From contig CAKSLQ010000003.1 in the NCBI GenBank assembly GCA_934467415.1, positions 77,957 through 141,956 of the forward strand: a DNA stretch of 64,000 nucleotides, written 5' to 3'. Positions 1,229-61,559 of the stretch are shown in pieces. The translations under genes and the position numbers were made by a program. The notes beneath the pieces were generated by a model that saw only the letters and a list, made by a program, of their open reading frames with translations, was not told the origin of the DNA and made no database searches. How positions within the stretch are numbered: the stretch's first letter is position 1; every line of letters starts with the position of its first letter. The stretch is from an uncultured Eubacteriales bacterium (GTDB taxonomy: Bacteria; Bacillota; Clostridia; Oscillospirales; CAG-272).

Positions 1229-3382
1229 ATGGAAACGAACAAGCGGGGCTGGATCAAGAATCTCATCATCATCTTTCTCGTGCTGATCCTGATTTTCACC
1301 CTTTTCTCAAACACGTTCATGAACCGCTCGCTGCCCGAGGTCGCCGTCTCCAATTCCGAGAGCGGCACGATCACCACGCAGGTGAAGCTGACCGGTACGG
1401 TCAATGCAAACTCGGTCAAGTCGGTCACGCTCGAGTACGCGCGCAAGATCAATGAAGTGTTCGTGCGCCGCGGTGACACGGTCACGCCGGGCACAGTGCT
1501 TGCCACGCTGGTGGCGGGCGAGAGCACCGAGATCGACAACCTCGAGATCGCGCTCAAGCAGCTCCAGATCGAATACAAGAAGATGCTGGTGGAGACCGAG
1601 GACTCGATCACCACGCTGCGCTATCAGCTGGAGGACGCCGAAAAGGAGCTCGCCGAGCTGAACGACTTTCTCGCCGCGTATCCGACGGCCGACGCGCAGA
1701 AGCAGGCCTACGCCGATCAGATCAAGGTGATGGAAACCCAGATCAAGGCGTATGAGGACAAGATCGAGGCGCGGAACGAGGAGATCGATGCAAAGAAGGA
1801 CGACCTCGACGCCAAGCAGGAGGTCATCGACGACCTGCAAAAGCAGATCAACAAGCTGCATGACGCCGGCATGACGCTGGAGAAGCTCGGCAAGGCCATC
1901 AAGGACGCCGAGCAGGACGTCAAGGACGCCGAAAAGGCGACCAGACGCGCAAAGACCGCGCTGACCTCGGCGGAGAGCGCTGCCAATACCGCATCGCTCC
2001 TGAGCGCAGACGCACTCAAGAAGCTGAACGAGGCCAACGCCGCACTGGAAAAGGCCGAAAAGACGCTGAGCGACCTGAACGCAAAGAAGAATTCGCTGGT
2101 GTCCGAGCGCGAGGCGCTGGATGCCCGCATTGCGGAGCTGGAGGCCAAGACCGACCGCACCGAGGCGGAGGAGGCCGAGCTCGCCGAGAAGAAGACCCGT
2201 CTTGCCGCCGTGCGCAGCGAGATCAGCGACACGAACGCCGCGATCGGGACGGCCGAGACTGCCGTGGCAGACGCCGAGAGCGTACAGACGGCAGCGGCCG
2301 CGGACAGTGAAAAGTATACCGGCCAGCTGCAAACGGCCAACAGCGCCCGCTCTGCGGCGGACGCCGAATACAAGAGCCGCCAGGCTGAGGAAAAGAGCGC
2401 GAAGACTACGCTGGACAACCTGAACGAGGGCTGGTCGCGCGCCCTGCTGGAGGACCGCCTTGCGGAGCGCCAGAGTGAATACGACGCGGTGGCCAAGGAA
2501 CAGAAGCTGCTCAACAAGGACGTCGAAAAGATGACCAAGGAGAAGGAGAAGCTGACCAAGGAGAAGACCGAGCTGGAAACCGACAGCACGACCTTCGAGG
2601 AGAAGACCAAGAAGCAGGTCGAGCTGACCCGCTCGGTGGCGGACTGCAAGACGAAGCTCCGCATTGCCGAGGCGAACGGCGCGATCGACGGCGAGACCGA
2701 GGCGCTCAACCTCTCGATTCAGCGCACGAAAATTGCGCAGAAGCAGCGCGAGATCGAAAAGATGCGCGAGAAGGCGGTCTCCACCGAGATCAAGTCTACG
2801 GTCAGCGGCACGATCAGCACGCTGAACATGACGGCGGGCGATGAGATCGCCGCAGGCACGACGGTGGCCGAGATTGCCACCTCGGACGGCTACACGATGG
2901 AGTGCAGCGTGCCGAACGCCCAGGCATCCCGCCTGCGCGTGGGGCTTGTCGGCGAAGTGCAGTACTATTACTGGGGCGATAAGCCGACCGTCACGATTCA
3001 GACCATCAAGAATGACCCGAACAACTCGGGCAAGAACAAGATTGTCACCCTCACGGTGGACGGCGACGTCGCCGACGGCACGTCGCTCACCGTCACCATC
3101 GGCTCGCAGGGCTCGAGCTACGACTGCATCGTGCCGAACAGCGCAATCCAGGAGGACTCGGACGGCAAGTTCATCCTCGTCGTCACCTCCAAGTCCTCGC
3201 CGCTCGGCAACCGCTACTATGCACAGCGCAAGAACGTCACCGTGCTTGCCTCCGAGGCAACGCGCAGCGCGATTGACGCCTCGCTCTCCTGGGGCGACTA
3301 TGTGATCACGGGCGCGACCGATGCGGACGGCAAGAAGATCCCGATCTCCGACGGTATGCAGGTCCGCATGGCGGAGAAATAA
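1229..3382 (+). CDS. HlyD-family membrane-fusion (periplasmic adaptor-like) protein with a very long coiled-coil insert
   Basis: ATG 1229 preceded by AGGAG. N-terminal TM (WIKNLIIIFLVLILIFTLF). Split lipoyl-like halves (VKSVTLEYARKINEVFVRRGDTVTPGTVLATL ... STVSGTISTLNMTAGDEIAAGTTVAEI) flank roughly 400 aa of E/K/A/L-rich heptad sequence. C-terminal beta-barrel-like region. Confidence 0.75.
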   Translation: METNKRGWIKNLIIIFLVLILIFTLFSNTFMNRSLPEVAVSNSESGTITTQVKLTGTVNANSVKSVTLEYARKINEVFVRRGDTVTPGTVLATLVAGESTEIDNLEIALKQLQIEYKKMLVETEDSITTLRYQLEDAEKELAELNDFLAAYPTADAQKQAYADQIKVMETQIKAYEDKIEARNEEIDAKKDDLDAKQEVIDDLQKQINKLHDAGMTLEKLGKAIKDAEQDVKDAEKATRRAKTALTSAESAANTASLLSADALKKLNEANAALEKAEKTLSDLNAKKNSLVSEREALDARIAELEAKTDRTEAEEAELAEKKTRLAAVRSEISDTNAAIGTAETAVADAESVQTAAAADSEKYTGQLQTANSARSAADAEYKSRQAEEKSAKTTLDNLNEGWSRALLEDRLAERQSEYDAVAKEQKLLNKDVEKMTKEKEKLTKEKTELETDSTTFEEKTKKQVELTRSVADCKTKLRIAEANGAIDGETEALNLSIQRTKIAQKQREIEKMREKAVSTEIKSTVSGTISTLNMTAGDEIAAGTTVAEIATSDGYTMECSVPNAQASRLRVGLVGEVQYYYWGDKPTVTIQTIKNDPNNSGKNKIVTLTVDGDVADGTSLTVTIGSQGSSYDCIVPNSAIQEDSDGKFILVVTSKSSPLGNRYYAQRKNVTVLASEATRSAIDASLSWGDYVITGATDADGKKIPISDGMQVRMAEK

Positions 3383-3394
3383 GGAGGACGACCT

Positions 3395-4426
3395 GTGAAG
3401 AAACGCTACATCGTTCTCGGCGCGCTCGTACTCGGCCTTGCGCTCATCGCGCTCGGCCTCGGCGCGGCGCGGCGCGGCGTCGTCGGTGACGACCGCAGGG
3501 ATTTTGCCGCCGAGACCTTCCGCGGCGCGGCGGAGACGCGGTATGTGCAGCTTTCGCTCTATCCGAAGGAGGAGAAGCATCTCACGCCGGACGGTATGAT
3601 GGCGGTGAAGAACGCGCTGGAGGCGTCGCTCACCGCGGACGGCATTTCGCCGCGCGGCAGCTATCTGCTGGTCGGCAGCGGCGAGACCGCCGTCACGCTG
3701 GCGCGCGAGTCCGCCATGGCGGACGGCATGACCTCGATCAACACCACCGATGCCACGGCAACCGTCTATTTCGGCAGCTGGTTCGGACTGCACCCCACGG
3801 TGCCGCAGAGCGGCGGCTTCGTGGACGCGGGCGAGACCGGCCAGGGCTACTGCGTGATCGACGAGTACACGGCGGCGCGCCTGTTCGGCTCGGTCGATGT
3901 GTGCGGGCTGGACATCACGGTCAACGGGTTTATGTACACCGTCACGGCGGTCGTCCCCGCCGACCGCGGCACCTACAGCGGCTATTACGGCTACACGCCG
4001 CGCGTCTGGCTCTTATACAATTCCCCCGCGATGCTTTCCGCGCGGCTGACCTTCACCTCGCTGGAGGCGGTGCTGCCGAGCACGACCACGGGGCGTGCGC
4101 GCAGCATCTTCCTCGAGGCGGCAAAGAGCTATTACGACGATGAGGGCGAGGTGGTGGAGAACACCGGCCGCTATACCCCCGCGCGGCTCTATCAAAAGGT
4201 GAAGGGCCTGACGAAAATGGCGGTCGCCGAGGGCGACACCTACCCCTACTACGAGAACATTTCGCGCATCCGGGAGACAAAATGCGCCATGATCCTCGTG
4301 TTTGAGGCGGTATGCTGGATGGGTGCGGCCGTCCTCCTTGGCGTACTGCTGTACATCTGGCTGCACCCACTCATCAAGCGGCACCGGGAACGCCGCGCTG
4401 CGAAAAAACTGCACGCCATCGTTTAA
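3395..4426 (+). CDS. bitopic membrane protein with a MacB-periplasmic-core-like extracytoplasmic domain (no FtsX 4-TM bundle)
   Basis: GTG start 12 nt after the adaptor gene. N-terminal TM and one C-terminal TM. Segment CVIDEYTAARLFGSVDVCGLDITVNGFMYTVTAVV resembles the MacB/FtsX extracytoplasmic domain. Confidence 0.5.
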   Translation: MKKRYIVLGALVLGLALIALGLGAARRGVVGDDRRDFAAETFRGAAETRYVQLSLYPKEEKHLTPDGMMAVKNALEASLTADGISPRGSYLLVGSGETAVTLARESAMADGMTSINTTDATATVYFGSWFGLHPTVPQSGGFVDAGETGQGYCVIDEYTAARLFGSVDVCGLDITVNGFMYTVTAVVPADRGTYSGYYGYTPRVWLLYNSPAMLSARLTFTSLEAVLPSTTTGRARSIFLEAAKSYYDDEGEVVENTGRYTPARLYQKVKGLTKMAVAEGDTYPYYENISRIRETKCAMILVFEAVCWMGAAVLLGVLLYIWLHPLIKRHRERRAAKKLHAIV

Positions 4427-9730: not shown

Positions 9731-9778
9731 GCCTTCCCCAGTGGGGGAAGGTGTCGGCGGAGCCGACGGATGAGGTGT
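9731..9778 (-). repeat. solo HP-I arm (3'-arm type)
   Basis: GCCTTCCCC-AGTG-GGGGAAGG-T-GTCGGC-GGA-GCCGAC-GGATGAGGTGT. Nearly identical to the arm at 28513-28560. Confidence 0.8.
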
Positions 9779-21685: not shown

Positions 21686-21852
21686 AAGTATTCTGCGTAT
21701 CCTCCGTGTTGTCGGACGGTTACCCGTCGGTTTTGCCGGAAGATGCGGCGGCAGTCCGCCGTCGGAGCATCCGCCGAATGGGCAGGCGAGCCTGCCGCTC
21801 TCGATAACTCCGATCCTCGTTAACCGCGCGGTGCGCGGTCTGGCGCTAAAGG
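21686..21852 (-). ncRNA. glmS: glmS ribozyme (GlcN6P-activated)
   Basis: The minus strand reads ..UUU-AGCGCCAGACCGCG..GGUUAACGAGGAUCGGAGUUAUCGAGAGCGG..UUCGGCGGAUGCUCC.., matching the conserved glmS core and cleavage-site context. Lies directly 5' of glmS. Confidence 0.9.
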
Positions 21853-21934
21853 CGCGGCACATGTGCCGACGCCCTTTTCATGAGCGTATATTTTCTGCGG
21901 CTCCGCCGCGGAAAAACAAAATATGAAATCCCGT

Positions 21935-28383: not shown

Positions 28384-28512
28384 TGCCGCAAGCCGACTTG
28401 CTTGATAATCATAAAGCGGCGCCGTCTTGCGGCAAGTCTGTACAAAATCTGCTGTGCCGTGGACGCAGCCATTGACAAAGTGTATATGTGAAGTGTAATG
28501 CTTGCGCTTATA

Positions 28513-28985
28513 GCCTTCTCCAGTGGGAGAAGGTGGCGGCGCAGCCGTCGGATGAGGTGTTTACGACAGCTGCAAGCTGTCGTAATCCAAGCACAGCTTG
28601 TCCAGTATATCTGCGGTTACAGAACCGAAGTTTTTGCGGATACTATCATTGGAATAACGAAGCACAGTAATCCCCCACAGGGCAAGCTTCTCATCTCTTT
28701 GTGCATCAGTTTGTACATGTGCATCGGACAGATGCTGTTTTCCGTCTACTTCAATCGCTATTTTTTTCTCTGCAATATAAAAGTCCAGAATATAGTTTTC
28801 AATATTGTGTTGACGCCTCACATTGCAGGGAAGTTTTTTCAGAAAGTCATACCAAAGATGCTTTTCTTCCGGTGTCATATTTTTACGAAGCGTTCGCGCG
28901 TTTTGGACAAGCTTTTTATTATATGGCAGCATGGCTACTCCTCATCCACCGCTGACGCGGTCCCCCTTCTCCCGCAGGAGAAGGC
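28513..28985 (-). mobile_element. candidate selfish element: DUF559 endonuclease ORF bracketed by double-hairpin inverted arms (HP-I, full-length form)
   Basis: Arms at 28513-28560 and 28938-28985. Each reads GCCTTCTCC-N4-GGAGAAGG, then a second hairpin, then GGATGAGG, in inverted orientation. The interior is visibly AT-rich compared with the flanks. The same arms occur without an ORF elsewhere in the window. Confidence 0.55.
28561..28932 (-). CDS. DUF559 domain endonuclease (Vsr-like PD-(D/E)XK fold)
   Basis: ..NYILDFYIAEKKIAIEVDGKQH..RDEKLALWGITVLRYSN.. is the typical DUF559 core. SD GAGGAG lies 5 nt before the ATG. Confidence 0.8.
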   Translation of the reverse strand: MLPYNKKLVQNARTLRKNMTPEEKHLWYDFLKKLPCNVRRQHNIENYILDFYIAEKKIAIEVDGKQHLSDAHVQTDAQRDEKLALWGITVLRYSNDSIRKNFGSVTADILDKLCLDYDSLQLS

Positions 28986-29018
28986 TTTTTTAGTTGTTCG
29001 GCAAAGCTTGTTCGCCCC

Positions 29019-34550: not shown

Positions 34551-34652
34551 CCGTACAGCGGGATGCGGAATACGCACCGCAGGGCAAAGCCCTTTCGTCC
34601 GCTCCGCAACTCCCCGTCGGGGCGGCACTGTACGCGCGCATTCCTACTCTGT
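34551..34652 (-). promoter_or_regulatory. THF (tetrahydrofolate) riboswitch aptamer
   Basis: The minus strand reads ACAGAGUAGGAAUGCGCGCGU..GGGGAGUUGCGGAGCGGACGAAAG..CUGCGGUGCGUAUUCCGCAUCCCGCUGU. This matches the conserved AGAGUAG / GCGU / CGCGGUG / GCAUCCGCU elements of the THF-I class. Located 5' of folT. Confidence 0.8.
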
Positions 34653-34716
34653 AATTTAATCAGTTGAAAAATTCTGTTCTTCAACTGCCGACTCTATTAT
34701 AGTCGCTTTCTGCGGC

Positions 34717-55365: not shown

Positions 55366-55781
55366 GGGAACGCGCAAACCGCACGGGGGCTTACTCCCGC
55401 CGTCCGAACCCAATCTGACTTTGGCTCCTCCTGACGGGGGAGCTGTCGCCGTAGGCGACTGAGGGAGAGATAACGCAAAGCAAGGCGGGTCGTCGAGGGA
55501 TGTTTTTCGGTTTCGCTTTGCGAAATCGTCGGTGTTCAGCCGACGAAGAAAAACTCCTTAGGAACACATCGTGTTCCGGGGGTCATGACCCCTACCGGAT
55601 TGTACAAAAGACGCACACACTGTAGGGCGGGGGCTTGCTCCCGCCGCACCTGCTCATACAAAACAATCATTCCCCGGTTGTTATTTTACTTTGCAAAAGA
55701 CACCTCATCCGTCGCCGTTCGGCGACACCTTCCCCCGCTGGGGAAGGCAAAGAACGCGGGTGACCGTACCGTTCTAACCAA
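55366..55781. repeat. dense mosaic of intergenic hairpin modules
   Basis: Contains a half HP-II (55423-55468), the ~60-nt shared module (55499-55557), GTAGGGCGGGGGCTTGCTCCCGCCGCA (55622-55648) and a solo HP-I 3' arm (55700-55748). Confidence 0.8.
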
Positions 55782-55944
55782 GCCTTCCCCCTTGGGGGAA
55801 GGTGGCGTGTAATACGCCGGATGAGGGGTAGCCATTCGTCAGAATGGCGTCTCACAGCACAGAACGAGACTGCGCAGACGGATGCTTACGCATCCTACCC
55901 CTCATCAGTCAACTCCGTTGACAGCTTCCCCCAAGGGGGAAGCC
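55782..55944. repeat. HP-I miniature (gene-less, symmetric arms)
   Basis: A and B hairpins, then GGATGAGGGGTA, then three small hairpins, then TACCCCTCATC followed by B' and A' hairpins. Confidence 0.85.
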
Positions 55945-61420: not shown

Positions 61421-61559
61421 GCCTTCCCCTTGGGGGAAGGGGGACCGCACCCGCGGTGGATGAGGGATTGCAGGCAGCAGGCACAGCATTGTGTGATGCT
61501 TTGCTTGCATCAATCCCTCATCAGTCGCCTACGGCGACAGCTTCCCCAATGGGGAAGCC
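61421..61559 (+). repeat. HP-I miniature (gene-less, with 5'-arm and 3'-arm polarity like the DUF559 copy)
   Basis: Left arm ..GGGGAAGG-GGG-ACCGC-ACCC-GCGGT-GGATGAGGGATT. Right arm AATCCCTCATC-A-GTCGCC-TAC-GGCGAC-A-GCTTCCCC-AAT-GGGGAAGC. Confidence 0.85.

Follow-up and report, generated by a model that had tools for sequence, protein, structure and literature searches.

Why should the ribosome-binding site of a small gene be built from a frozen sequence motif, and why should the complement of the same motif stand just past the stop codon? The window, i.e., the whole 64-kb stretch of DNA that was analysed, contains such an arrangement in a 475-bp unit (28512-28986), where two inverted arms of ~48 nt each (28512-28560 and 28937-28986) bracket a DUF559 gene. 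This open reading frame (28561..28932, minus strand) encodes a Vsr-like PD-(D/E)xK protein of 123 aa and has a GC content of ~37% vs ~58% in the host.

The gene and its inverted arms

Direct reading of the sequence gives a minus-strand mRNA with GGAUGAGGAGUAGCC-AUG on its 5′ side and UAA-ACA-CCUCAUCC on its 3′ side. At the DNA level, GGATGAGGAGTAGCC-ATG precedes the gene on the minus strand (start codon at 28932-28930) and TAA-ACA-CCTCATCC follows its end, while the corresponding plus-strand strings are GGATGAGG at 28550-28557 and CCTCATCC at 28940-28947. The Shine-Dalgarno (SD) sequence AGGAG (28938..28942, minus strand, 5 nt from the ATG) combines motif positions 6-8 with positions 9-10. An earlier note on this DNA had placed the SD within the conserved motif, and this was borne out, as AGGAG lies inside the motif or abuts it, at a suitable spacing of 5-7 nt, a feature conserved in the main clade. 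The complementarity between the motif and the sequence after the stop codon, also described there, is real and its strings are present, but it extends beyond 8 nt, being the inner end of the ~48-nt inverted arms. In a typical element the arm-to-arm identity runs over 8 nt, meets an A/A mismatch within the SD and continues for 2 nt.

Read from the outside inwards, the arm consists of a pyrimidine strand CCTTCTCC, a 4-nt loop, a purine strand GGAGAAGG, a covarying second hairpin (HP2), the motif GGATGAGG, which closes the arm on its inner side, and one further base, position 9; CCTTCTCC and GGAGAAGG together form the first hairpin, HP1. The 50-nt arm sequence is 5′-AGCCTTCTCCTGCGGGAGAAGGGGGACCGCGTCAGCGGTGGATGAGGAGT-3′. 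In the arm downstream of the gene, whose sense is that of the plus strand, HP1 reads AG-CCTTCTCC-AGTG-GGAGAAGG (28512..28533), with covariation in its stem, and is followed by a linker and HP2, TG-GCGGC-GCA-GCCGT-C (28534..28549), and by GGATGAGG with a T at position 9 (28550..28558), complementary to the loop base A28522; this last segment appears on the mRNA strand as A-CCUCAUCC, 3 nt past the stop codon. The upstream arm, on the minus strand, comprises AG-CCTTCTCC-TGCG-GGAGAAGG as HP1 (28965..28986), a linker and HP2, GGG-ACCGC-GTCA-GCGGT, with a GNNA loop closed by C-G (28948..28964), and GGATGAGG with an A at position 9 (28939..28947), the partner of the T that opens the HP1 loop.

On the plus strand, HP1 of the upstream arm followed by CTTTTTT resembles an intrinsic terminator, and this antisense, terminator-like hairpin with its T-run was the sole feature that a promoter scan of the arm returned, a sigma-70-like promoter for the ORF being absent from it. 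Searches against Rfam gave no family match for the arms, either at the gathering score or at E<=10; for this reason, no weight was given to a passing likeness between GGAUGAGG and the CUGAUGAG box of the hammerhead. In the variable spacer upstream, TRF found no tandem array.

The motif is not confined to the gene. GGATGAGG is found 12 times in the 64-kb window vs 2.3 times expected (0/100 shuffles reach 12), and half of these copies (6/12) belong to the eight arms that the window contains. A solo arm at 9732..9775 (plus strand), with neither ORF nor inverted partner, retains GGATGAGG-T next to a variant HP1, CCTTCCCC/GGGGAAGG, and another at 55703..55747 (minus strand) also retains GGATGAGG-T; the motif is as well conserved in these two as elsewhere. 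The two gene-less miniatures with motif-built central stems that the earlier note had reported were found as well. The first (55783..55943) has inverted arms at 55783-55826 (plus) and 55900-55943 (minus) with a central stem GGATGAGGGGTA...TACCCCTCATC, and still carries GTAGCCAT, that is, the leader of the full unit plus the first two bases of its start codon; in the second (61422..61558), arms at 61422-61465 (plus) and 61516-61558 (minus) enclose GGATGAGGGATT...AATCCCTCATC. Both keep the motif.

Of 80 related Clostridial loci selected by protein, most show this motif-gene-motif layout again, and in nearly all of them arms flank the DUF559 gene. In 48/80 loci the ATG follows the end of the motif by 6-10 nt, in 30 of the 80 by exactly 7 nt, and the other arm abuts the stop codon, CCTCATCC beginning 2 nt past it in 29/80. 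Furthermore, the ORF-arm junctions are identical to the nucleotide over many species, and the orientation of the ORF relative to arm polarity is flipped in three loci (L018, L024 and L044).

The motif as a putative third strand

The relation of the motif to its own arm follows a simple rule: GGATGAGG mirrors GGAGAAGG, the purine strand of HP1, apart from a T in place of one A, and is therefore able to lie antiparallel on that strand. Under a triplex code of G.G-C, A.A-T and T.A-T, all eight positions fit in both arms of the unit (8/8), as would be the case for an arbitrary 8-mer with a chance of ~1/8192, whereas the ORF-less arms of the window fit at 6-7/8 positions (7/8 triplets in the solo arm at 9732..9775). 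Both arms of the unit contain the three successive blocks, i.e., pyrimidine, complementary purine and mirrored purine-rich, of an intrastrand triplex. We consider it probable, at roughly 60%, that GGATGAGG serves as the third (Hoogsteen) strand in a module that folds into an intrastrand purine-motif DNA triplex. In such a module, GGATGAGG would run antiparallel along the purine strand through these triplets, HP2 would link the purine strand to the third strand by a U-turn at the foot of HP1, and position 9 would extend to the HP1 loop, whose first base it would meet in a Watson-Crick pair.

Covariation between HP1 and the motif is consistent with this arrangement. Compensating changes combine AGGGAAGG with GGATGAGT, GGGGAAGC or GGAGAAGC with TGATGAGG, GGGAGAGGG with GGGTGAGGG (15/27 hairpins, which were not selected by pattern) and GAGGGAGG with GGAAGGAG (7/8). 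The soil loci were chosen by a pattern that itself imposes GGAGAAGG...GGATGAGG, so that the unbiased set consists of the Clostridial loci and second arms only. Independent events of this kind are few, and lineage effects may account for them.

The strongest covariation of the arm (mutual information of 1.12 bits) links two single bases, the first of the HP1 loop and position 9, which stands just after the motif and supplies the A in the SD "GGAG". All four pair types occur (A/T 53, T/A 42-45, C/G 5-19 and G/C 5), 87-93% of the pairs being Watson-Crick regardless of the type of HP2, and in a 30-arm alignment pairing is complete (UA 17, AU 13; 100%). The two bases are brought together only by a third strand running towards the loop. 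Extending this pair into a pseudoknot helix in either direction was rejected, the neighbouring bases being non-complementary, and so was selection of the SD as the sole cause of the A/T asymmetry at position 9, where the base follows the HP1 loop and the three flipped loci show the reverse polarity. A Watson-Crick/wobble hairpin of GGATGAGG with CCTTCTCC (six Watson-Crick pairs plus one G.T) is weaker and leaves both the covariation of loop and position 9 and the change at position 8 unexplained, so that we rank it below the triplex; an inversion of flip/flop hairpins like that of parvoviral ITRs was discarded, as neither arm has a loop that is the reverse complement of the other's.

Two further features are strand-specific. 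HP2 loops are of the G..A type (GNA or GNNA, arm sense) in 73/132 arms and closed by C-G in 104/132, while the complementary T..C class amounts to two cases, and this polarity goes with the arm and not with the mRNA. Moreover, the pairs of the HP1 stems comprise 1154 Watson-Crick against 5 G.T and 6 A.C. Both the loop polarity and the near absence of wobble pairs point to folded DNA rather than RNA.

The arms resemble the BoxC/PIT/TMECO elements, whose description as palindromic repeats dates from the 1990s (Holder 2015, NAR 43:10126, PMC4666352; work on BoxC and PIT by Hoyne/Maher and colleagues is cited therein). TMECOs have the block order CCCTCNCCC-N3-6-GGGNGAGGG-N3-GGGNGAGGG, form a stable class II triplex in vitro by CD and NMR, and are multi-copy and intergenic with no known function (PMC4666352). 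The Clostridial arms share the pyrimidine block, the complementary purine block and the mirrored purine-rich block with a T opposite one A (purine and third strand are GGGAGAGGG/GGGTGAGGG in TMECO and GGAGAAGG/GGATGAGG here). They are likewise multi-copy, intergenic, single or in inverted pairs, and located at unstable loci with hairpin scars, just as inverted TMECO pairs show strain-to-strain instability and partial deletions that leave a hairpin (Holder et al., PMC4666352). Nevertheless, the arm (CCTTCTCC/GGAGAAGG/GGATGAGG) does not match the TMECO consensus CCCTCNCCC/GGGNGAGGG/GGGNGAGGG. Its loop 1, of 4 nt, falls within the 3-6 nt of TMECO, but loop 2, which in TMECO has 3 nt (TTA or CCG, within a search range of 1-6 nt), measures 16-17 nt, up to 40 nt elsewhere, and forms a hairpin, so that the Clostridial arm is a variant and not a TMECO. 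Other differences are the additional Watson-Crick pair that joins the loop to the base following the third strand, the hosts (Clostridia for HP2-type arms, E. coli and other Proteobacteria for BoxC/PIT/TMECO) and the presence of a protein gene between inverted copies. In ~30% of arms HP1 is CCTTCCCC/GGGGAAGG with GGATGAGG unchanged, which gives one central non-canonical triplet, A opposite G-C; TMECOs with a single mismatch are still stable, with a Tm of 70-74 vs 78-82 C (Holder et al., PMC4666352).

The third-strand reading would also account for the peculiar ends of the gene. As the two modules are inverted, their third strands are mutually complementary, and the 5′-3′ closing helix would be a geometric consequence of this arrangement; the ORF is wedged exactly between the arms, and would have co-opted as its SD the third strand, rich in purines, that the upstream arm provides. 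Purine-motif triplexes are reported not to form in RNA (Holder 2015, PMC4666352), and in the mRNA the motif would be either free for the ribosome or masked by pairing, with CCUCAUCC from the 3′ arm or with CCUUCUCC in HP1 of the upstream arm, which may damp expression as a secondary effect. In duplex chromosomal DNA the triplex would form just transiently; Holder et al. could not demonstrate the TMECO triplex in vivo (PMC4666352).

Pairing of the gene ends and mobility of the unit

The earlier note had instead put the pairing of the ends at the centre, as a built-in translational brake: GGAUGAGG:CCUCAUCC would be a selected RNA closing helix that loops out the ORF and occludes the SD. This proposal, which is compatible with a role at the DNA level, survives best among the alternatives, yet we regard it as unlikely. 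Folding does predict the closing helix in the full-length transcript: the two arms are paired in the MFE and centroid folds of the 491-nt RNA (z=-8.3), and the 8-bp helix is thermodynamically strong at equilibrium, with P=0.73-1.0 and a mean of 0.98 in 34/34 canonical elements, as computed with ViennaRNA, whose model leaves triplets out. The 5′/3′ complementarity is also conserved across loci in the other DUF559 copies, whose lack of it would have spoken against the proposal, and the 3′ partner CACCUC is like the general bacterial anti-SD, although the 16S end of the host lies outside the window. In E. coli ycjD the GTG start is buried in a hairpin too, a separate one of 15 bp (CACCTCATTCTGACA/TGTCAGAATGAGGTG), and sequestration of the SD or start may recur in DUF559 genes. 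Furthermore, self-limiting expression is common in the nuclease and transposase genes of mobile elements, which we count in its favour. Transposase translation in IS10/IS50 is inhibited by fold-back, and in phage MS2 long-range 5′-3′ RNA pairing exerts control. The DUF559 unit resembles IS10/IS50 in that a mobile-element gene has its ribosome-binding site in inverted-repeat-derived sequence which another part of the same transcript may pair with and sequester, but there the partner is upstream and forms before ribosome binding, whereas here the predicted partner lies ~380 nt downstream, past the stop codon.

Against selection for this helix stands, first, the pattern of variation. Positions 1-8 are almost invariant across loci and, since they hardly vary, no compensatory change supports the pairing. 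The rare changes at position 8 are common to both arms in four loci (L063, L075, L077 and L079) but uncompensated in two (L074 and L076). The variable SD base, position 9, is an A opposite an A in most elements, and covaries instead with the loop of HP1 in the arm to which it belongs. Second, the occlusion gained is small: SD pairing is predicted at 0.65-0.74 without the 3′ arm and at 0.84 with it, so that this arm lifts it just from 0.74 to 0.84. Distant relatives keep the closing complementarity and yet have a separate AAGGAG SD 20-60 nt downstream of the motif, with a predicted SD pairing that spans 0.13-0.98. The partner is transcribed ~380 nt after the SD, therefore ribosomes can load first, and those that terminate, 2-3 nt upstream of this partner, should pull the helix open. 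The earlier idea thus stands as to the predicted helix, though this helix hides the SD little further and lacks support from covariation. A brake may exist, but it is not the reason for the conservation of the motif, because ORF-less arms keep the motif, relatives have separate SDs, position 9 is mismatched, the added occlusion is small and compensation is lacking.

The DNA-level pairing of the ends, which the earlier note had offered as the other option, fits what is seen among strains. The rplA-Rce1 spacer is polymorphic between strains of the same species and contains solo-HP1 scars: the unit is gained or lost precisely at HP1, and alleles without it keep exactly one HP1, with the loop of either copy. 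These observations bear on a second alternative, which we find more doubtful still, namely, a small transposon or MITE family with the arms as its ordinary terminal inverted repeats and GGATGAGG as a duplex site bound or cleaved by DUF559 or by a transposase encoded elsewhere, with no triplex involved. The ~48-nt inverted arms, the gene-less miniatures and the solo arms (8 arms/64 kb) would suit such an element, as would the leader GTAGCCAT in the first miniature, expected of an internal-deletion derivative, the presence/absence polymorphism among strains, the low GC of the ORF and the occurrence of an invariant, single-stranded-looking motif beside covarying hairpins, which is reminiscent of IS200/IS605 and REP ends. 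Nevertheless, the unit has no target-site duplication, i.e., no flanking direct repeat, and the empty alleles retain one HP1 and not a clean site. No transposase of a known family was detected, the Vsr-like nuclease being the only protein match, and DUF559 is not among the known transposase fold families. Paralogous units within one MAG are 64-91% identical in nucleotides, so recent bursts are not evident. Finally, a duplex site leaves the mirror repeat, the covariation of the loop with position 9 and the polarity of the G..A loops unexplained.

The least probable alternative treats the DUF559 ORF as a free-standing invader of homing-endonuclease type that entered the palindromic centre of a pre-existing repeat, with the arms as its target or homology and both the SD use and the complementarity as accidents; VSR and DUF559 do form one clade that includes a group I intron homing endonuclease (PMC3424549; PDB 3r3p), PHROG and PADLOC return weak homing endonuclease matches, the ORF is flipped in three loci and has a GC content strongly unlike that of the arms, and ORF-less arm pairs offer many possible targets, but no allele with both arms and no ORF was found at the same locus, where losses take everything between the HP1 copies, the junctions are identical to the nucleotide in many species, and the association holds at 34% protein identity and with TMECO arms (L209, E. 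coli ycjD), which speaks for a long-standing partnership and against a recent invasion.

DUF559 nucleases and triplex-type repeats

DUF559 is a large nuclease family and, to our knowledge, no substrate has been identified for any member of DUF559 proper. The protein of the unit carries the D...E-x-D-G-x-x-H motif, which we take, from Vsr-like nucleases, to be catalytic. Its DFYIAEKKIAIEVDGKQH aligns with DFMCVTPKLIVEADGGQH of PDB 3hrl, and it matches the Pfam DUF559 profile (PF04480) in full length (positions 2-108 of 109, E=5e-27, 94.3 bits vs a gathering cut-off of 20.6), both of which tie it to the DUF559/YcjD/Vsr-like family; it is not a YcjD equivalog, given its 60 bits in NCBIfam vs a cut-off of 218. 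Vsr nicks T:G mismatches in duplex DNA, whereas a structured-repeat substrate for DUF559 is a new proposal.

The association of gene and arms extends beyond Clostridia. In soil contigs L099, L112 and L209 it is found at <=34% protein identity, including with classic TMECOs; L112 has the same architecture at 34%, and in L209 classic TMECOs and HP2-type arms occur together beside a DUF559 ORF. The metagenome pattern scan yielded mostly chance matches, real arms being present in ~18/120 loci. In E. coli, a TMECO lies ~170 nt downstream of ycjD, a gene found in 3378/5426 complete genomes. It is carried by phylogroups A, B1 and C, whereas B2 has eefRABCD at that site (PMC12817139), and TMECO numbers are 19-30 in the lineages that carry ycjD vs 1-2 in B2 strains (Holder supplementary table, PMC4666352). 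Among the searchable papers, none was found that ties DUF559 or YcjD to triplex repeats, nor did the literature searched (DUF559, COG2852, ycjD, Vsr-like, REP and Faecalibacterium MITEs) contain a description of the arm-DUF559-arm unit. Holder et al. found no connection of TMECOs with mobile elements and named no protein partner (PMC4666352).

Altogether, we tentatively propose, while holding it to be somewhat less likely true than not, that DUF559 nucleases of the YcjD-type, Vsr-like kind are the missing protein partners of the intrastrand-triplex repeats, both BoxC/PIT/TMECO and the hairpin-linked arms. Such a protein might act as a RAYT/REP-like, structure-specific nickase of folded hairpin-plus-third-strand DNA, encoded between its own inverted repeats and driving their spread, maintenance or instability. 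The comparison is with the REP/REPIN repeats and their RAYT transposase, reportedly forming a 'REPtron', and REP repeats fold on single-stranded DNA. Common to both is a low-copy gene for a small nuclease that is flanked by inverted, short structured repeats, dispersed elsewhere as singlets and inverted doublets. The REPtron, however, relies on a HUH Y1 transposase and a GTAG-flanked palindrome, while here a predicted Vsr-like PD-(D/E)xK nuclease accompanies a hairpin-third strand-hairpin, so that the DUF559 unit is at most REPtron-like in its working, and not a member.

For the gene itself, the frozen ribosome-binding site would find its explanation in an SD built from a DNA structural element, where even the variable base is set by a pairing unrelated to the ribosome. 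This calls for caution in similar cases: where inverted repeats flank a gene, the complementarity of its two ends should not be taken for an RNA switch without evidence of covariation. Neither the 2015 study nor the searchable papers assign a function, a spreading mechanism or a protein to BoxC/PIT/TMECO (PMC4666352). A unit of two triplex-type modules around a DUF559 gene would thus tie together two orphans, the repeats and the nuclease family. The wider lead comes from finding DUF559 genes beside triplex repeats not just in Clostridia but also in soil contigs and at E. coli ycjD.

The DUF559 unit and its inverted arms

The DUF559 open reading frame (28561-28932, minus strand, 123 aa) encodes the DUF559 domain alone (Pfam PF04480, E=5e-27, profile positions 2-108 of 109). 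Among solved structures its product comes closest to 3hrl (an "endonuclease-like protein"), and it retains the D...ExDGxxH motif; PHROGs and PADLOC gave weak matches only, to homing or HNH endonuclease families. The GC content is ~37% in the ORF versus ~58% in the host. The product has thousands of relatives, and the 120 closest ones listed come, where the source is named, only from Clostridia or Ruminococcaceae MAGs. A perfect 11-bp palindrome, TTACGACAGCT-GCA-AGCTGTCGTAA (28561-28585), spans the stop codon and the eight codons before it; it is lineage-specific, the C-terminus being DSLQLS here versus SDLKPxR in relatives.

The strings on which the earlier note had built its proposal are present where it had placed them: read along the minus strand, GGATGAGGAGTAGCC-ATG stands at the start of the ORF and TAA-ACA-CCTCATCC at its end. 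Around the ORF, the 8-nt complementarity forms the innermost part of ~48-nt inverted arms (28512-28560 and 28937-28986), each consisting, from outside to inside, of a hairpin HP1 (CCTTCTCC-N4-GGAGAAGG), a second hairpin HP2 and the motif GGATGAGG, which the window contains 12 times where 2.3 would be expected. Of the eight arms there, two flank the ORF, two are solo arms (9732-9775 and 55703-55747) and the other four belong, two each, to the gene-less miniatures at 55783-55943 and 61422-61558. No Rfam family matched the arms; the THF riboswitch (34554-34653, minus strand, 94 bits) and the glmS ribozyme (21689-21858, minus strand, 64 bits) that Rfam recognizes in the window bear no relation to the unit. 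Antisense to the ORF, an intrinsic terminator is scored on the plus strand where CTTTTTT follows the outer HP1 (28965-28993), and an A-run 5′ of the upstream arm is found in many relatives too.

A scan of species-representative genomes yielded 80 loci, nearly all from Clostridia/Oscillospiraceae MAGs, most of which share the layout to the nucleotide (arm, GGATGAGGAGT, ~5 nt, ATG, ORF, TAA/TGA-CA-CCTCATCC, arm) and retain the complementarity, so that these other copies do not refute the earlier proposal. That the Shine-Dalgarno (SD) sequence lies within the conserved motif holds for this clade, the motif ending 6-10 nt before the ATG in 48/80 loci and exactly 7 nt before it in 30/80. In ~20 more distant relatives the motif lies 20-140 nt 5′ of the ATG, several of them having their own AAGGAG or AGGAG directly before it. 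A strict pattern search found no motif in 12/80 loci, several of which, by eye, carry variants such as GAATGAGG. In three loci (L018, L024 and L044) the ORF runs the opposite way with respect to arm polarity, and the arm with loop TGTG and an A after the motif (position 9) sits 3′ of the stop codon; either arm can therefore supply the SD.

A proposed RNA closing helix versus constraints within the arm

It had been proposed that the upstream motif pairs in the mRNA with its complement after the stop codon, a closing helix that would occlude the SD and act as a translational brake. Such a helix is thermodynamically credible, because in both the minimum free energy fold and the centroid fold of the 491-nt transcript the entire 5′ arm is paired with the entire 3′ arm (z=-8.3), and the partition function gives GGAUGAGG:CCUCAUCC a pairing probability of 0.73-1.0 (mean 0.98) across 34 canonical elements. 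The single-stranded DNA fold of the element likewise pairs the arms (z=-7.1). Nevertheless, several results speak against the helix being what was selected, and a translational brake, possible as a side effect, is improbable. Between the arms, 8 nt are identical; at position 9, within the SD core, A faces A, after which 2 further nt agree before the identity ends. The motif is invariant and thus offers no covariation to draw on, and the few changes at position 8 are common to both arms in some elements but not in others. Relatives with a separate SD retain the helix while the pairing of their SD ranges from 0.13 to 0.98. Moreover, the SD segment is predicted to be paired at 0.65 in the nascent transcript, 0.74 with the whole ORF but without the 3′ arm, and 0.84 in the full element, so that the 3′ arm would contribute little to occlusion. 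Finally, the motif is kept in the solo arms and miniatures, which have no ORF to regulate. The complementarity is real and predicted to fold, but its status as a selected function is doubtful.

On the complementary strand, or in the mRNA, the 3′ arm (28512-28560, minus strand) reads CCUCAUCC-HP2-CCUUCUCC-loop-GGAGAAGG. It is pure speculation that this might in principle fold into a pyrimidine-motif triplex containing one mismatch, which would compete with the closing helix; triplexes of that type can exist in RNA.

The comparison of ~140 unique arms, pooled from the window and the fetched loci, reveals constraints of another kind. Both the sequence of HP2 and its length (11-40 nt) are free to vary, but it folds in every case. 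Read in the arm sense, its loops are of the G..A type (GNA triloops, GNNA tetraloops) in 73/132 arms and closed by a C-G pair in 104/132, the complementary T..C class being seen twice; this polarity is equal in upstream and downstream arms and hence goes with the arm, not with the mRNA. C-GNA-G loops are classic ultra-stable DNA mini-hairpins (Hirao, Yoshizawa). The HP1 stem presents compensated changes (pair 6 is T-A in 98 arms and C-G in 43) and virtually no wobble (1154 Watson-Crick pairs, 5 G.T, 6 A.C), as would be expected for DNA rather than RNA.

No two positions of the arm covary more strongly than the first HP1 loop base and the base directly after GGATGAGG (MI 1.12 bits; in the unit, 28522 with 28558 and 28976 with 28939). 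The combinations A/T (53), T/A (42-45), C/G (5-19) and G/C (5) make it 87-93% Watson-Crick, independently of HP2 type, and a 30-arm alignment is 100% paired (UA 17, AU 13). T/A prevails in upstream arms and A/T in downstream ones. It is therefore a T in the hairpin loop of the same arm that sets the A completing the SD "GGAG", and the A/A mismatch of the closing helix arises because the downstream arm has the opposite pair. A DNA structure within the arm explains the invariance of the motif, including the SD base at position 9, better than the RNA helix does, and the end-to-end complementarity would then follow from two triplex-type modules lying in inverted orientation.

A probable triplex-type module and its behavior in DNA

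Read in mirror image (GGAAGAGG), the HP1 purine strand GGAGAAGG gives the motif GGATGAGG once a single A is changed to T, a relation that matches exactly the code of antiparallel purine-motif triplexes (G.G-C, A.A-T, T.A-T). HP2 would make a U-turn at the HP1 base, the third strand would ascend the HP1 stem, and the base after it would reach the HP1 loop, the site of the covarying pair. The code is followed at 8/8 positions in both arms of the ORF-bearing unit and at 6-7/8 in the ORF-less arms of the window. Furthermore, HP1 and third strand change together: AGGGAAGG with GGATGAGT, GGGGAAGC or GGAGAAGC with TGATGAGG, GGGAGAGGG with GGGTGAGGG, and GAGGGAGG with GGAAGGAG (7/8). The main evidence against the code comes from GGGGAAGG arms, which retain GGATGAGG and so contain one odd triplet; one-mismatch versions of the E. 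coli triplex repeats, TMECO, were found to remain stable (Holder et al., 2015, PMC4666352). On sequence grounds, the arm is probably an intrastrand triplex-type module.

Two variants deserve mention. In the second arms of the miniatures (55900-55943 and 61516-61558) the basal HP1 pair is inverted (GCTTCCCC/GGGGAAGC) and the third strand begins with T (TGATGAGG), which may give a T.C-G triplet at the inversion site. One strain carries at the same locus (L085, ~3370-3480) an arm with HP1 CCTCCTCC/GGGGGAGG and motif GGATGGAG, its third strand partly co-changed with the stem.

CD and NMR show that the E. coli BoxC/PIT repeats, or TMECO (CCCTCNCCC-N3-6-GGGNGAGGG-N3-GGGNGAGGG), fold into stable class II intrastrand triplexes; these repeats are intergenic, of unknown function, "not associated with" transposons, phages or plasmids, and occur 3610 times in 262 proteobacterial genomes, and RNA cannot form purine-motif triplexes (PMC4666352). 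The arms would be a new, hairpin-linked variant of the same kind of repeat, one that would escape the search of Holder et al. because it admitted loops of 1-6 nt only (PMC4666352).

Same-species contigs, recognized by an identical rplA product, either contain the unit in the rplA-Rce1 spacer or lack it and have exactly one HP1, with the left-copy loop AGTG in L088 and the right-copy loop CGCA in L086 and L087; a more distant strain has the spacer without any HP1. No target duplication was found in the compared alleles. This pattern would be that given by deletion between the two 8-nt HP1 stem repeats, and such deletions are, we infer, promoted when the inverted arms fold back. The unit-loss alleles match the "palindromic TM" deletions of TMECO pairs, whose loci are unstable, inverted pairs tending to lose part and leave one hairpin (PMC4666352). 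The alternative offered in the earlier note, a DNA structure bringing the ends together, gains indirect support from these one-HP1 alleles. Paralogous units within one MAG are 64-91% identical, with no sign of recent transposition bursts among them.

Related blocks make up the spacer that separates the rplA terminator from the unit (28390-28510; ~3270-3500 in L082-L088), each block ending GACAAGTCTGTACAAAATCT...TTGACAAAGTGTA(T/G)AT...GTGTAATGC, with a promoter-like TTGACA at 28473-28478. Block number varies between strains (spacers of 284 to 860 nt), and TRF called no tandem array in this spacer.

Apparent association of DUF559 genes with triplex-type repeats

Judging from sequence, the association of arms with DUF559 extends beyond gut Clostridia. 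A soil contig (L112) presents arm, ORF and arm at 34% protein identity, the motif lying ~80 nt 5′ of the ORF start; in L209 a DUF559 ORF is followed by a classic TMECO and then by a hairpin-linked arm; and in L099 GGATGAGGGTGAAGACT-ATG opens an apparent DUF559 N-terminus, the ORF being cut by the contig end. In E. coli K-12 (L211, 5030-5850), a TMECO lies ~170 nt 3′ of ycjD, the DUF559 gene of that region, with a duplicated fragment of the ycjD 3′ end between them. A 15-bp hairpin (CACCTCATTCTGACA/TGTCAGAATGAGGTG), its motif similar to GGATGAGGTG, buries the GTG start of ycjD in its 3′ half.

ycjD is present in 3378/5426 complete E. coli genomes. For the strains with TMECO counts, the phylogroup labels (A/B1/C, B2 and D/E/F) are those that we take to apply. 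Phylogroups A, B1 and C have been described as carrying the gene where other lineages have eefRABCD (PMC12817139). In turn, the per-strain table of Holder et al. (PMC4666352) gives 19-30 TMECOs in A, B1 and C (MG1655, 55989, IAI1, W, HS, BL21, APEC O78), 1-2 in B2 (CFT073, UTI89, IHE3034, UM146, S88, APEC O1) and 6-15 in D, E and F (O157:H7, 042, UMN026, IAI39). This apparent co-distribution is a lead and not a test, because it would reflect few independent evolutionary events.

The openly searchable literature, to which our search was confined, yielded no paper tying DUF559 or YcjD to BoxC or triplex repeats. The link between a triplex-type repeat and a nuclease family of unknown function is apparently unreported, and it is the part of the finding worth pursuing.
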